Assembly (NCBI GenBank): GCA_963702565.1
Contig: CAVPDE010000026.1
Coordinates: 25,235 to 89,234, forward strand
Source of the DNA: an uncultured delta proteobacterium
GTDB taxonomy: Bacteria; Desulfobacterota; DSM-4660; Desulfatiglandales; HGW-15
Direction: 5' to 3'
Length of the DNA: 64,000 nucleotides
The position numbers and the translations under genes are program-made. This document shows, one piece after another, positions 29,319 to 35,680 of this stretch. The stretch's first letter is position 1; every line of letters starts with the position of its first letter. The notes under the pieces were generated by a model. The model was given only the letters and a program-made list of their open reading frames with translations. It searched no databases and had not been told where the DNA came from.

Positions 29319-29340
29319 CTCCACTCTCCTTTCGGAAGGA

Positions 29341-30423
29341 GGGACGTTCTTGATATATTGCTATTCTAGCCATTCTCCCCTTATCTCCTCGCGTTCCAGT
29401 ATCGCTGGCGCACGGGCTATTGACCTGCTTACGGCAGAAGGACTGATTCCGAGCTCCGTCGCAAGCGATACAGAGGTCATCCCTATTTTACGCACGCCCA
29501 AGTAGCACAGAACCGCACGGGCTTTGGCTATGGCAGGAACCTTGCTTGCGGATTGAAGAGATTCTGGGTCTATACCGAAATGCGCGGAGACTTTTTCTGA
29601 CAGCCATTTTAGGTTCATTCCCTTTTTCCTGAGGAGGGACCTCTTCTCCCATTCCTCCTCTGACTCCCTCAAAACGCGCTCAACAAAATCGGATCCTCCC
29701 AAAATCCGCTCGTCGGCCCTTACAGCCTCTCCCGATTTGTGCAGTTCATCCAGCCCCTTCCACCCTCCCACAGAGCGCAGCAATCCTCCGCCCGCTAATT
29801 CCGGCCGTCGCCCCTGCGCGACCCCCTCCGAAACATAGGATACATAAGCCGACCTGGCCTCCTTCTCCGTGTGTCCGAAATATCGTAGAACGTAATCTCT
29901 ATCCTGCCAGTTTCTCTTCTTCCTACCCATGAGCACGGAATGCCCTGAGTAAGCATAGAAGCCAAGCTCCCTGAGATCATGCACTAGTCCAGCCCGAAGG
30001 GGATTCAGATGGATATAGCGCACAAGCTCCCGTAGGTAGGCATCTTCCTCGCAAAGGATAGACTTGTAACGGTTTTGAAAGAGATGCCCGTGACGAGAAT
30101 AACGCCGGTTAAAGGTCACGGCATAGCCGGTCAGGAGCTTTCTCATGACGCGGGCAATGGGAATTCTTCCTGTTCGGAGAAGAAAATGAGCATGATTGGT
30201 AAGCAAAGACCATGCGTAGCAAGGGGTCGAGCTTGCCATCAGGATTCCGCCAAGTCGATCAAGAAAGGACTCGCGATCTTCATCGTTTCGAAAAATCGCT
30301 GTCCGGTCGATCCCTCGGATCATCACATGGTGGAGTGCCCCAGGCGCGTCTAATCGTGATTGACGTGGCATTCGGTTCTCCTAGCGCAACGAAAACAGAA
30401 TGTCAACATATCAAGAACGTCCC
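29341..30423 (-). mobile_element. inverted-repeat-flanked Y1 HUH transposase unit
   Basis: IR GGGACGTTCTTGATATATTGCTATTCT (29341-29367) vs reverse complement of 30397-30423, 24/27 identical; third copy 30503-30530. Confidence 0.75.
29361..30371 (-). CDS. RAYT/TnpA-REP-like Y1 HUH transposase with C-terminal HTH (DnaA_C-like)
   Basis: MPR..R.D.PG..HHV..RG, NHAHFL (HUH), GHLFQNRYKS, YIHLNPLRAG (catalytic Tyr), C-terminal LGIS.SAVSR. Confidence 0.9.
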   Translation of the reverse strand: MPRQSRLDAPGALHHVMIRGIDRTAIFRNDEDRESFLDRLGGILMASSTPCYAWSLLTNHAHFLLRTGRIPIARVMRKLLTGYAVTFNRRYSRHGHLFQNRYKSILCEEDAYLRELVRYIHLNPLRAGLVHDLRELGFYAYSGHSVLMGRKKRNWQDRDYVLRYFGHTEKEARSAYVSYVSEGVAQGRRPELAGGGLLRSVGGWKGLDELHKSGEAVRADERILGGSDFVERVLRESEEEWEKRSLLRKKGMNLKWLSEKVSAHFGIDPESLQSASKVPAIAKARAVLCYLGVRKIGMTSVSLATELGISPSAVSRSIARAPAILEREEIRGEWLE

Positions 30424-30598
30424 GCCTTTCTCAAATGGTTGTCTTGGTCCGACCCGACCCACCACGGCCTTTACTCCCATTCAATTCATTTGCAGCCATG
30501 GTTAGAATATCAATATGTCAAGAATGCCCCTCCCCTAGCGGGAGAGCAGTTCCCCTCGGCGCGACGAAGTCGTCCCTCTGATCCACAGAAGCTCATTC

Positions 30599-31027: not shown

Positions 31028-31380
31028 GAGAACACAATAGGCGGAAAGGAAGAAACTTATAATATTATGTGCGTCCCCTCAATGCCCACAGCCGTCATCT
31101 TATCCAACGGTAAGGCGAATTCCATGCCTGTTGCCCTCCCCTGAACTAACGCATAGGGCAAAGGCTATCGCATCGGGGGAAAAACTTCAAGGGATAGACT
31201 AGGGCCGCTGAAGGGTTAAGACTCTTGGTGTTAGACCCCCAGGGTATCCCATGATCCTATCCGAAAGTTAAGAAAGTCAAAGGGTTACCTCAAAGCCCCG
31301 GGCACGTGGAAGTCATAGAAGTGACCCACTTGTTGTAGAGCACACAGGGAGCGGAAAACCTATAATATTATGTCCCCCCT
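31028..31380 (-). repeat. pair of direct repeats with GGGGAC end and ATAATATTAT core (31028-31079, 31338-31380)
   Basis: GCGGAAA..AACTTATAATATTATGTGCGTCCCCT and GCGGAAAACCTATAATATTATGTCCCCCCT. Confidence 0.7.
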
Positions 31381-31548
31381 TCATCCTATGTCTTTGATAA
31401 AAGCCAGGGATATTCCCAAAACCCCGGTCGAGAGGGTAAGGATAGCATTGTCAAACTTTTCGGAATTCGATAGGTTTCGGGTAAGGAGATCTTGTCTCGT
31501 GCTCGCGTAGATTTTCCTTCTTTCCTCTTTGTCTTCGTGGGTACTCAT
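31381..31548 (-). pseudogene. probably truncated third cassette gene (membrane protein N-terminus)
   Basis: MSTHEDKEERRKIYASTRQDLLTRNLSNSEKFDNAILTLSTGVLGISLAFIKDIG*; starts just after the attC core and stops at the GGGGAC repeat. Confidence 0.6.
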
Positions 31549-31569
31549 TAAACACCGTCTTTTGTCGGG

Positions 31570-31631
31570 CTCTAACGAGTCTCTTCAGCGGGCGCAGCTT
31601 TTTGCGATCCGCTGCAAGAGCATGGTTAGCC
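31570..31631 (-). mobile_element. attC: integron attC site
   Basis: Minus strand GGCTAAC CATG CTCTT(G)CAGCGG ... CCGCTGAAGAG ACTC GTTAGAG; 62 bp; one extra base in L''; 4 nt after nitroreductase stop. Confidence 0.9.
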
Positions 31632-31635
31632 CTCC

Positions 31636-32244
31636 CTATTTGATGAGAAGGTTATCAAGTGGCAGCCTTTTTCTGGGTTCAGGAGACTCTGCCGGATAGC
31701 CTATTGGCAGTAAGGCGACAACGAAAATATTTTCATCCCAGCCAAATAAGCTCCTTATCATGTCAGCATTAATTAATCTTATCCAGCAGGTGCCCAAACC
31801 GAAGTCCAAGGCTCTCAAGACTATGTGCTCGATAGCTATGGCAACATTTGCGGCAATTTGAGGCCCTATTTGATCAAGAGTATAAGACCTCGCTTGTTCT
31901 ACTCTTTTGACAAGGATCTTTACAATCTTGTCCTCGACCGCCTTTATTTTCCCAAGGTCCTGTGCACCGGAAGCAGATCCATCGAGATAGCCTTTGATGT
32001 CCGCACAGCAGACAGTCACGACAGGTGCCTCAGCGATGAATATCTGATCATAAGCTGCTAGTGCCAGTTGGAGTTTTGTTTCCGCTTGTTTTATAACTTT
32101 AAAACGCCATGGTTGAGCATTGCATCCTGACGGTGCCAGCCTTGCAGACTCCAGCAATTCTTTAATACATTCATCAGGAACTGGATCAGGCTTGAATCTA
32201 CGGATGCTCCGTCTGTTTTTTATTGCATCTTTCGTTGTTAACAT
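31636..32244 (-). CDS. nitroreductase family protein (gene cassette)
   Basis: RRSIRRF, ARLAPSG.NAQPW.F, GLGTCWI, LPIGYPAE...PR.R; AT-rich; bounded by attC sites. Confidence 0.92.
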   Translation of the reverse strand: MLTTKDAIKNRRSIRRFKPDPVPDECIKELLESARLAPSGCNAQPWRFKVIKQAETKLQLALAAYDQIFIAEAPVVTVCCADIKGYLDGSASGAQDLGKIKAVEDKIVKILVKRVEQARSYTLDQIGPQIAANVAIAIEHIVLRALDFGLGTCWIRLINADMIRSLFGWDENIFVVALLPIGYPAESPEPRKRLPLDNLLIK

Positions 32245-32285
32245 ATTGCCTTATCCTATCGACCTGCCTTGTCTGTTTTATCCGG

Positions 32286-32348
32286 GGCTAACAGGGGCGT
32301 CACCCGGAGCCGGCAGTTTCGGCGATCGGGTGCACGCGATCGTTGGGC
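32286..32348 (-). mobile_element. attC: integron attC site
   Basis: Minus strand GCCCAAC GATC GCGT(G)CACCCG ...GCCG-loop-CGGC.. CGGGTGACGC CCCT GTTAGCC; 63 bp. Confidence 0.9.
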
Positions 32349-33094
32349 AATTCATGATCGTGTTCTTTCAAGGTCCGAAAAGCCACGGCGGCTTTCAGAA
32401 AAGCGAGGACAATTGGATGAGGGTTGCCCGGCTTTGAGGACAGCTGAGGAAGAAAAAGGGTTGCCACAAAGAAAGGATGGGAAGTAAGCTCAACAATTCT
32501 TGCGTTTCCGTCACTGTCCTTGCCAACAACACGAAGAGCACCCTGCATGATGTCGTTCCGATACGTTTCGTTGAGCCCGTAGTTGCAGGTGAATTGCTCA
32601 GTGGCTCGGTTCTTTCCATATGCCTCGAAGGCTAAGGTGCCAGGTGTAACCAAAACCTCTTGTTCGACACCGGCAAGGGAGCACACGAGACGGCTTATGA
32701 CGAGAGCGGGAGAAGCGGGCGCGGTCTCCTCAAAATCAGCATCTCGTATGCCCGCAACATTTCGCGCATACTCTACCAGAGCATGCTGAAAGCCGCTTCA
32801 GGTTCCCAGGAACGGCCACCTTCGTTCCCTGGTAAACCGGATTGCTTCCAACGCGCCGTTCATGCTCCTGTATGGACCCCCGGGAGCACAGAAGATGCCG
32901 TCATACTCCTCCAACTTGCCGTGGTCCGCCGCAGTCTCCAATGCCTGTGTAGGAATCCAATCGGCGCTGACCGCAGCCGTTACTCTCTCTGCCGCGTGAC
33001 GCAAAGCCTCGTTCGTAGCCTTGTGTGACGGGCGCTCAGCCTCAAAGTCCCCCACAATTGCGATTCTTACGTCAGCGGTCATTCTGTCCTTCAT
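32300..33094 (-). CDS. CTP-synthase-like class I glutamine amidotransferase, probable selenoprotein (Sec99), 264 aa
   Basis: ORFs 32798-33094 and 32300-32686 are in frame, separated by one TGA (32798-32800) and 37 sense codons; reads PFLGT-U-SGFQHALVEYARNV where CTP synthases have PFLGxCxGxQ; also IAIVGD, DGI..PG, CNYGLN, ELTSHPFFVATLF. Confidence 0.8.
32754..32797 (-). promoter_or_regulatory. bacterial SECIS-like element
   Basis: UGA + 11 nt + GCAUGCUCU-GGU-AGAGUAUGC (9-bp stem, G-first loop); lower stem GCGGC/GUUGC and UUUC/GAAA. Confidence 0.75.
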
Positions 33095-33099
33095 TTTTT

Positions 33100-33118
33100 T
33101 CCCAACAAGTGATTAAGT
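33100..33118 (-). mobile_element. attI-like integron recombination site (no adjacent intI)
   Basis: ACTTAAT-CACTT-GTTGGGA (L box, 5-bp spacer, core); core complements the first cassette's inverse core GCCCAAC at 6/7. Confidence 0.6.
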
Positions 33119-33724
33119 GGTTTCCGGTCATCTCCAAGGAATGTCGCCGACTTGCGAAATAGAACTGACACAAGGGCTTAGTTTTGCTCGATCAGGTAGT
33201 CGGTTAACACCCCAAATGGAATGAATACACCCTTTCCGGGTATCACCACCTGCTCACTTGTCGGCGGAACACTCTTCAATACGCTTTGGAGATGGGTGAC
33301 TTTAATCGAGAGATAGGTTTTGGCTGGCTATTTTGGTTAGGCTGATAAATTGACCAAATACTCATCCAGCAAGAGAATGCTGAGTTAGGGAAAAACCCCG
33401 CTGGTCGGGCTCTGGTTTTGGGTATAATAGAGGGAAGTCAGCGGGAAATCAAGAGAATTCACCGCAGAGGCGCCGAGGCCGCAGAGAAATGCAAGGTGTA
33501 CCTCTGCTCATGCCTGCGGAAGACAACCCCCGCAGTATCACGACCTGGCTTTTCCTTGACCCGCAATGCGAGATGCCCTATAGTCCGAGCCCGAAATGGG
33601 CAGCCCTATCACCCAGGATCTTCCTCATCATTCAATCCCATTTTCTGTTCGAGTGGACAGTTTCGGGGCGTGAACCAGCGCCCAGGGGAATATCGGCGGA
33701 GAAGGCGGGGTGGGGAGAACAACG

Positions 33725-34605
33725 ATGAAAGCTTCTCAGGTAATCAAGAACGGTATTGCAGCGCTGCCGCAGATCCTCTGGAACCTTACGCTGATCGCGT
33801 TGGGCAGCGTTCTTTGTGCGGTCGCCCTCAACGGAATCCTCATTCCCCGTCAATTTCTTGAGCGGCGGTTTCACCGGCCTGGCTCTCATCATCCACTATC
33901 TTGTTCCCGCATTTCCCCTCGGTGCCATCTACCTCCTTCTTAATATCCCCAACTATGCCTTTGGATGGAAATATGTGGGACGACGATTTTTCCTCTACAG
34001 CATCGCTGGCATGTTCATTTTCTCAGCCGCCATTGAGGCTGATTCACATTACCCTTCCGGTCTACGATTATCTGCTCAGCGCGCTGCTGGCAGGAGTCAT
34101 CGTGGGGACCGGCTCTGGCCTTATCCTGAAGTCTCTTGGATCCGCAGGCGGTACGGACATCCTTTCCGTCATCCTTCTCAAGCTCTTCTCTATTCGCCTT
34201 GGCACCACGATCCTCGCATTCAACGGGATCATTCTGGCAGCGGCCGCCGTCCTCTTCAGTCTCGAGATGGCTCTTTACACGCTTATCTATCTCTACATCA
34301 GCTCCTACATGCTTAATCTGGTGGTCACGGGATTGAACCAGCGTAAAGCCGTCTATATTATCTCGCCGCAATGGAAAGAAATCTCGCAGGAAATTATGAA
34401 AGAACTTCAGAGAGGCGTGACCATCCTCAAAGGGGAGGGAGGATACACAGGCAAAGAACAGCCTGTCCTGTACACGGTCATCACCTTCCGCGAACTGAGC
34501 CGGCTCAAAGGCTTGATCCGTCGGATGGATCCGGATGCCTTTGTCGTGGTCAGTGAAACCCTGGAGGTGATGGGTCATCGCATCGGCAACCAGCCCCACT
34601 GGTAG
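33725..34605 (+). pseudogene. YitT family membrane protein with two +1 frameshifts (or assembly errors)
   Basis: Three overlapping frames join to ...LIPRQF/SGGFTGLA...NIP.../GSAGGTDI...RGVT.L.G.GGYT...D.DAFV; shifts near 33858 and 34038. Confidence 0.8.
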
Positions 34606-34789: not shown

Positions 34790-35221
34790 ATGTCAGTTGC
34801 GAGTGTTGCACTCATTTTGGGAGGAAGGAAGAGCCTGAAAGGTGGGACGGCCGAGCGCTTCGATCTGATGAAGCTGAGCCAGAAGGGCGTGAACAAAGAG
34901 GCGTTGCTTCGCCTGGCCAAGTACCTTGATTTCTCCGTTAGCCAGATCGCGGAGCTCTTGCCCGTAACGCAGCGGACTATTCAGAGATACAGCCGCAACC
35001 ACCGCTTCAACCAGGCGGTCTCCGAACATATACTCCAAATAACGGAAGTGGCCCTGCGGGGTGCGAGCGTGTTCGGCAGCAGGGACAGGTTTGTCACCTG
35101 GATAAAGTCGAAAAGCCCTGCTCTCGGCAACAGGACTCCGGCCTCGCTGCTGGGCTCGAGATTCGGAGCGGAGATGGTCCTCGATGAACTGGGCCGCATC
35201 GAGCACGGGGTCGTTTCCTGA
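34790..35221 (+). CDS. Xre/MbcA/ParS antitoxin
   Basis: V..RTIQRY HTH; VFG....W......ALG..TP.SLL....G.EMV.DELGRIEHG. Confidence 0.9.
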   Translation: MSVASVALILGGRKSLKGGTAERFDLMKLSQKGVNKEALLRLAKYLDFSVSQIAELLPVTQRTIQRYSRNHRFNQAVSEHILQITEVALRGASVFGSRDRFVTWIKSKSPALGNRTPASLLGSRFGAEMVLDELGRIEHGVVS

Positions 35222-35680
35222 TGCTCGTATACCGGATCGCCAAGAAGGATGTGGTCAAGGACCTCTCAGGAACAGGAGCGAAGTTGTACGGAGGGCGGTG
35301 GAATCACAAGGGAACCGCCGTCGTCTACACCTCTGAAACCCGGGCCCTGGCAACGGTCGAGTTTCTGGTGCACATGTCCCTGTCGAACGCCCCAAGGGGC
35401 CTGATGATTGCCACTATCGAGGTTCCCGACAAAATTGTTCCGGAAGAGGTTCCGCGAGCGTCCATGCCCAGGGGCTGGCGCGATTACCCGTCCGCCACGG
35501 TCAGTGGCTGACCTGGGGACCCAATGGGCTAAAGCCAAGAAATCCCTTTTGTTGCGGGTGCCTTCGGCGGTTGTCGAGCAGGAATACAATGTTTTGATCA
35601 ATCCGCTGCATTCTGATATGGGGAAGGTGGTGTTGCTGCGGGTAGAGGCGTTTGAGTTAGACAAAAGGCTTGTTCGTTGA
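35221..35680 (+). pseudogene. RES-domain toxin with +1 frameshift near 35491 (or assembly error)
   Basis: VYRI, SG.GA..YGGRWN.KG..VVYTSE..ALA.VE in one frame; G.QW.....LLLRVPSAVV..E.N.LINP.H in the next. Confidence 0.8.

Follow-up and report, generated by a model that had tools for sequence, protein, structure and literature searches.

A decayed chromosomal integron with a putative selenoprotein gene as first cassette in an uncultured delta proteobacterium

Organization of the cassette array

The window, that is, the whole stretch of DNA analysed here, comprises 64,000 nt of contig CAVPDE010000026.1 (assembly GCA_963702565.1). All positions refer to it, and the array lies on its minus strand. 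In reading order, the following elements can be distinguished: (i) an attI site, whose core GTTGGGA is found at 33106-33100; (ii) cassette 1 (32292..33105; 814 bp), formed by a gene of the NF004836 family with a predicted selenocysteine (Sec) codon and its own attC; the gene (ORF1, 32300..33094) is supported by the NF004836 profile, the predicted fold and the alignment of its 3' end; (iii) attC1 (32286..32348; 63 bp; inverse core GCCCAAC, core GTTAGCC); (iv) cassette 2 (31576..32291; 716 bp), formed by a nitroreductase gene (PF00881; 32244-31636) and attC2; (v) attC2 (31570..31631; 62 bp; inverse core GGCTAAC); and (vi) the stub of cassette 3 (31381..31575), with an ORF of 55 codons (31548-31381). 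Hence, every element named in a preliminary description of this DNA (an attI-like site, two cassettes each followed by an attC, and a truncated third gene) is present on the minus strand. The G+C content of cassette 2 is 46%, vs 55% for the genome.

Both units have the make-up of a gene cassette, i.e., an ORF plus an attC with a core complementary to the inverse core. In cassette 2, GGCTAAC is the exact complement of GTTAGCC (7/7), just as had been described. The GTTGGGA/GCCCAAC pairing described for cassette 1 does exist, but it reaches only 6/7 in the window because this copy is short of one core C; other copies (locus L107 and contigs of the runs X2 and X6) retain it as GTTGGGC and pair at 7/7. 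The bottom strands of attC1 and attC2 (fold z -2.8 and -4.1, respectively) form one long stem in which the AAC/GTT box is paired, with an unpaired spacer between the R and L boxes and an extrahelical base. The first extrahelical base is a C in both sites; according to the part of PMC2727003 that deals with this position, a G-to-C change there entails only a 2.7-fold loss.

A strict attC heuristic returned just these two sites in the 64 kb of the window and none in 25 of 25 shuffles. They were further searched with R2, a covariance model whose training set consisted of 20 attC-like sites from other arrays of the host genome and of two relatives, with the window excluded; the training sites are kin sites picked by our own heuristic, the structure was set by hand and the model differs from that of IntegronFinder. 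R2 scored attC1 at 40.2 bits (E 3e-8) and attC2 at 29.1 bits (E 3e-5), the top two of nine matches in the window, 650 bp apart and on the same strand, while a control set of 44 housekeeping loci (161 kb) gave one weak match (10.9 bits). The suggestion that an attC covariance model should recognise both sites was borne out in this way, with our own model and not that of IntegronFinder. R2 superseded a sequence-only model (R1, built when RNAalifold gave no consensus on a MAFFT alignment) that matched attC1 and missed attC2. Taken together, core pairing, folds and R2 matches support the early view that these are cassettes of the excisable type.

A different explanation would take the hairpins for terminators, or for REP-like repeats belonging to the Y1 transposase nearby, the genes having come by another route. 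A REP-associated-type transposase with 32-bp inverted repeats does lie 1 kb away, and the attC model is home-made. Nevertheless, this explanation is made very improbable by the core/inverse-core pairing, by the preference of R2 for the bottom strand (40.2 vs 13.8 bits), by transposon ends and attC sites having no repeat in common, by the link between attI and intI in relatives and by the junctions of other cassette copies, which sit exactly at the core (see below).

The attI site and the loss of intI

In the attI site (33100..33126, its motif extending at least to 33126), G33106 and T33105 flank the crossover point. The 150 bp next to the core on its upstream side belong to a remnant integron platform (33107..33257), a promoter region common to relatives, with identities of 83% to G001:C8, 73% to G001:C30 and 71% to G002:C5. 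In these three loci of two same-genus genomes, similarity ends exactly at GTT and different cargo follows each time. In two of them (G001:C30 and G002:C5), a broken intI on the opposite strand starts ~145 bp from GTT. The locus G001:C8 is the syntenic one: it is flanked by a B3/4-domain gene with cimA and, at the opposite end, by cupin, glyoxalase and amidohydrolase genes, and it has different genes behind attI.

When the 209 genomes of the order were searched by pattern, the attI motif turned up in nine of them, at 11 places. Genome G036 has the motif 151 bp away from a full-length IntI (366 bits against TIGR02249, whose cut-off is 265), and a cassette and an attC come after the motif; in G017, a related motif precedes a full intI; and at six of the ten other places no intI occurs inside the available flank. 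On this comparative evidence the attI of the window array is real, proven by its relatives: what had been described as an attI-like site is a point at which conservation stops at GTT and from which intI or its remains lie ~145-151 bp away.

Only seven bases of the intI start are left in the window (33250-33256, plus strand), after which the deletion begins. The preliminary description placed yitT at the divergent position; yitT does lie there, but these few bases precede it. The array was also rightly described as integrase-less: a tblastn search of the window with three IntI proteins gave no match below E 1, and in the host genome none of 16 TIGR02249 matches exceeded the cut-off. Since the assembly is 97.8% complete and in 30 contigs, an intact intI could have been missed. 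The best genomic match (C16:280610) was rejected as an intI, being a fragment beside a transposase that we take to be IS91-like. The search for an integrase that might act in trans yielded no intact gene, the sole intI trace in the host being an internally deleted gene of 69 codons (C24:374577-374783) with its own attI and attC.

This trace belongs to a second integron relic (C24:374577-375094), in which an in-frame internal deletion fuses the N- and C-terminal ends of intI; attI follows at 375017 and then an attC without a preceding gene. Genome-wide, R2 found 26 sites at E values up to 0.5 (20 include the training set), most of them clustered on C16, C18, C24 and C30. Further clusters or single attC sites were observed at C24:299536-308189, C16:125687-130792, C30:117134-120533, C18:338751-342699, C19:36360 and C16:419270.

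Judging from these sequence comparisons, intI was lost by deletion at the window locus and the array is what remains of a complete integron after decay, as opposed to a cluster devoid of an integrase from the start. It retains attI at its head and has no intI beside it; with two attC sites on one strand (R2) and no integrase nearby, it falls within the definition of a CALIN. With intI deleted at this place and no intact copy found elsewhere in the genome, the array is at present probably immobile, unless an IntI should arrive in trans.

The putative selenoprotein gene

ORF1 scores 329.9 bits against NF004836 (curated cut-off 260) and contains a single in-frame TGA at codon 99 (32798..32800, minus strand). 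This codon, the predicted Sec99, occupies the nucleophile (Cys) position and aligns with the catalytic Cys of CTP synthase; the column is Cys in 109 of 112 homologous proteins. At 20 nt after the UGA, a putative SECIS core hairpin (32767..32785, minus strand; -21.4 kcal/mol, z -2.2) has a stem of 8 bp (or 8-9 bp), with 8/8 pairs, and a 3-nt GGU loop. It agrees with the four consensus rules quoted in PMC13188914, whose text on SECIS elements gives a loop of 3-9 nt, a stem of 4-16 bp, G in the first two loop positions, a distance of 16-37 nt from the UGA and an MFE <= -7.5. It also resembles one host selD hairpin (3-nt, G-led loop ~22 nt after the UGA).

Conservation of the hairpin was assessed in 107 distinct Sec segments from 128 loci. 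All eight pairs are kept in 72 of them. At synonymous positions, a mean of 6.72 of 8 pairs is retained vs 4.59 (sd 0.10) after synonymous resampling, a difference whose significance is overstated by the relatedness of the sequences. The Glu codon is GAG in 106/107 segments, vs 56% elsewhere in these genes. In one branch, 21-24 Sec segments do not form this stem, nor do the two Cys genes examined.

Could the TGA be, instead, a mere nonsense mutation, or encode Trp, with cassette 1 being a pseudogene? Cassette arrays often contain decayed genes, and Trp stands at this column in some database proteins (five GTWGGFQ motifs among 121). But an estimated ~980 metagenomic stretches carry TGA at exactly the codon 99 position, with the hairpin kept at synonymous sites; a single TGA is present in six of the nine family members of the order; the family is listed as a selenoprotein; and translation table 11 yields normal ORFs throughout the window. 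This possibility can, in consequence, be regarded as largely refuted. The proteins with Trp at the Sec column (P0003, P0005, P0008, P0010 and P0011) likely arose from gene callers translating TGA under another code.

The earlier claim that cassette 1 encodes a putative selenoprotein with an internal SECIS is, thus, upheld by the NF004836 score, the TGA at the Cys column and the maintenance of the hairpin at synonymous sites. That the family is a selenoprotein family has already been published: the pertinent section of the deep-Sep study reports NF004836 as new (PMC12013277), and a review from 2026 lists it with the motif GxUxG (PMC13188914, in the part on selenoprotein families). The family itself is uncharacterised.

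At the 3' end, the stop of ORF1 is shifted into the L' box of attC1 (region 32300-32375) owing to the loss of one base ~20 nt ahead of the native stop. In L107 and L048, the stop lies before the attC; the shift recurs, with no gap, in the ~99% identical copy of X2.

Predicted fold and chemistry of the ORF1 protein

The predicted fold is that of the glutaminase domain of CTP synthase (CTPS), with a pLDDT of 94 and a TM score of ~0.8. Regarding class I glutamine amidotransferases (GATases), the protein shares their fold and lacks their Cys-His-Glu triad: the triad His is absent in 113/113 aligned proteins and the Glu is replaced by Gln in 110/113 (FLPQ vs AHPE). Cys170 is kept in all 113 aligned proteins and Cys138 in 111 of them. 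From CTPS structures, the Cys170 loop presumably lines the active site.

The enzyme is, then, likely not a classical glutaminase, as far as its sequence indicates. The replacement of the triad His and Glu, together with the retention of Cys170 and Cys138, favours a thiol-selenol chemistry, and the sequence and the fold model give about even chances that the protein performs Sec/Cys chemistry of this kind on a GATase fold, which would be more plausible than glutamine hydrolysis.

Distribution and movement of cassette 1

Copies ~99% identical to the cassette 1 gene were found in contigs of X2 and X6, from two different studies. In them, GTTGGGC precedes the start codon and is joined to an attC arm instead of attI; X2 also contains an attI-like stretch with another first cassette. 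At the place equivalent to window position 32335, foreign sequence, possibly an insertion element, breaks the attC of X2 and X6 within L''. The metagenomic locus L107 (82% nucleotide identity) has a perfect GTTGGGC/GCCCAAC pair; its attC, related and intact, scores 35.4 bits, and the gene that comes next is a different one. Therefore, cassette 1 appears in different array positions, i.e., behind attI in the window, following an attC arm in X2 and X6, and before another gene in L107, with the junctions of the other copies exactly at the core. The search for this cassette in other arrays, recommended at the outset, was in this respect successful, and it can be stated from sequence comparison that cassette 1 has moved between arrays. 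The converse situation, in which the two genes would be fixed and syntenic without attC in relatives, does not hold, since NF004836 is present in neither of the two same-genus genomes and the syntenic locus of G001 holds other cargo. Joints skipping a cassette were not seen in the contigs of four runs, which cannot show absence of excision. Cassette 2 has four relatives at 67-68% in the 209 genomes, none with an attC.

In any case, most Sec copies are ordinary chromosomal genes. A metagenome set of 120 loci was collected by the Sec-codon pattern, 40 of which had no flanks and fell outside the model scan. Among the 80 with flanks, the Sec gene was the best match in 79 (L117, whose best match is a Cys gene, was dropped), and in 62 the sequence continued for at least 200 nt after the stop. 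An attC model match in the proper orientation lies right downstream of the Sec gene in four of these 62 assessable loci (L107, L119, L122 and L124), the remaining 58 having no right-orientation match beside it; it is this proportion that marks most copies as ordinary genes. Two loci (L119 and L122) out of the 44 having both flanks have an attC on each side. The matches of L098 and L136 were rejected for lying on the wrong strand, and L164, L048 and L049, with attC-like flanks that look eroded by eye and give no model match, were left outside the count. L048 and L049 share the same cassette start and belong to Desulfobacteraceae and Thermodesulfobacteriota MAGs, both with selB.

Within the order, the family occurs in nine of 209 genomes. 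None of the five other TGA copies has an attC nearby in the right orientation (R2); both full Cys copies, L226 (G114:C322) and L225 (G192:C7), lie in attC arrays of genomes that have selB. The Sec-codon pattern had no matches in viral contigs, and 14 plasmid records contained relatives below 45% identity among the listed matches, whatever the codon at the Sec column. On a quick tree of 159 proteins, the ten rows labelled as cassette or eroded need five changes, four of them forced by strong branches (one cassette group is the Cys pair, and three labels come from inspection by eye). Cassette status is accordingly not confined to one clade in this tree, which means either several captures or gains and losses.

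Decay and neighbouring elements

The lost core C, the shifted stop, the cut cassette 3 and a frameshifted yitT are signs of decay. The cassette 3 ORF retains 55 codons, vs 98-247 aa in 44 relatives that are 70-93% identical over the stub, and it is cut beside a degenerate transposon-end copy (31356-31373; repeat family D1/D7). A frameshift near 33854-33857 divides the gene yitT (33710-34605), and in two runs the contigs are one base short at this point.

Two other elements were observed in the surroundings: (i) at 29336-30428, a Y1 transposase of the REP-associated type, with a C-terminal DnaA-like helix-turn-helix and 32-bp inverted repeats at its bounds, together with three degenerate copies of its ends (at 30504, 31051 and 31356), of which that at 31356 lies at the cassette 3 break; and (ii) at 34790-35680, an Xre/RES toxin-antitoxin pair, whose RES ORF appears split in two frames.

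Host machinery and expression

The host genome has selB, selA, selD (two TGA-bearing copies) and tRNA-Sec. As 89 of the 93 near-complete genomes in the order have selA (178/209 overall), SelB compatibility is a weak limit in this lineage, and the host barrier is slight within the order. That the gene would be expressed only in hosts with a compatible SelB, as proposed earlier, follows from established recoding rules, with this weak limit in mind. Inasmuch as its SECIS is part of the ORF, the cassette brings all the sequence that recoding calls for, and only SelABCD must come from the host.

The consensus scan found no Pc-like consensus in the conserved 150 bp; the sole upstream sigma-70 match on the minus strand is at 33452-33424. 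In RNA run X1, parts of cassettes 2 and 3 are covered at 99-100% and the Sec gene is covered patchily, by less similar contigs; such contigs do not show transcription. An ORF of 19 codons with a ribosome-binding-like GGAG (33131-33072) crosses attI and overlaps the start of ORF1. Leader ORFs of this kind occur at attI1; translational coupling is not claimed here, the start codon not being conserved in relatives.

These data bear on the possibility that cassette 1 is a real cassette and a silent relic, Pc having been lost with the intI deletion, so that the selenoprotein is not made in this host. The lack of a Pc consensus in the conserved region, the lesions at the ends of cassette 1, in cassette 3 and in yitT, and the poor coverage of the Sec gene in the only RNA run that holds the stretch speak for it. 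Against it stand the open and full-length ORF1 and ORF2, the perfect SECIS (8/8 pairs), the 3' shift common to the ~99% copy in X2, and the 150 bp promoter region conserved across the genus. On balance, silence is judged unlikely, although it is the most serious of the alternatives weighed here.

Proposed history of the locus

The explanation preferred with considerable confidence is that of a decayed chromosomal integron, with attI, two intact attC cassettes and a deleted intI, whose first cassette is an NF004836 gene with a UGA predicted to be read as Sec by means of an internal SECIS. A long-type IntI of the relatives' kind would have brought the cassettes into attI by recombination of the attC x attI type, cassette 1 likely being the last insertion since it is the first in the array. 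The deletion of intI would have come afterwards, leaving an array that could be mobile only with IntI in trans, and cassette 3 would have been cut next to the degenerate end copy of the neighbouring Y1 transposase element. Transcription would likely proceed from a promoter upstream of attI. Decoding of UGA99 by the host SelB is likely because the hairpin needs no sequence beyond the cassette.

More generally, integrons likely carry recoding-dependent genes between bacteria, to judge from the sequences compared. The locus thereby offers a concrete mechanism for the horizontal spread of selenoprotein genes: with the SECIS of bacteria located within the coding sequence, a unit made of ORF and attC would bring all but the host machinery. 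Besides, cassette catalogues likely undercount selenoprotein cassettes, since these genes are split by standard gene callers. A wider joint reading, whose chances we place slightly below even, is as follows: integrons would be a recurring, overlooked route for selenoprotein genes among Sec-using sediment bacteria; the family would have become a cassette several times, each time with its own SECIS; these cassettes would be readable only by Sec-competent hosts and would be hidden from surveys by gene callers that split them at the UGA; and the product would be a Sec/Cys redox enzyme on a triad-less glutaminase fold. The locus and its relatives illustrate, in addition, how a CALIN may originate through intI deletion, and they yield an attI sequence for the long-type IntI family of the lineage. 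Each ingredient was already known, and the array is small and probably frozen.

Comparison with known systems

Integrons are known in Desulfobacterota, as stated in the part of PMC8618304 on their distribution. According to the sections of Cury et al. (2016; PMC4889954) on CALINs, a CALIN or decayed sedentary integron has the same outline as the window array, i.e., two attC on one strand, no intI nearby and a transposase nearby; no intact intI was found in the host genome, as is the case for half of the CALINs in those sections, which also mention intI pseudogenes beside 15/279 CALINs. Unlike them, the window array keeps attI and the first bases of intI, relatives reveal that it originated by intI deletion, and its cargo depends on translational recoding.

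A selenium-related gene in an integron cassette has a precedent in the selenocysteine lyase cassette of Vibrio sp. DAT722, in the cassette annotations of PMC1382264. That cassette is annotated as a selenium-metabolising enzyme, whereas the window gene is a predicted UGA-recoded selenoprotein. No description of a UGA-recoded selenoprotein gene in an integron cassette was found in the open literature.

With regard to the glutaminase domain of CTPS (class I GATase; PDB 3nva and 1vco), the ORF1 protein has the same fold and the same nucleophile elbow position. It differs from it in being a stand-alone domain with a predicted Sec as nucleophile, in having the triad His replaced by Leu and the Glu by Gln, and in presenting an invariant Cys170 at the place of the His of the CTPS motif RHRYE.

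Finally, like the published NF004836 selenoproteins, ORF1 exceeds the curated cut-off, has a G-T-U-S-G motif with a SECIS directly downstream, and has abundant Cys homologues; its local branch shows U-S-G (4/107 distinct segments) where most Sec copies have U-G-G. The passages on this family in PMC12013277 and PMC13188914 give no genomic context, whereas here the gene is a cassette. To sum up, the selenoprotein family, CALINs and the integrons of Desulfobacterota were known, and what appears to be new, as far as the open literature shows, is a predicted selenoprotein gene as a cassette.
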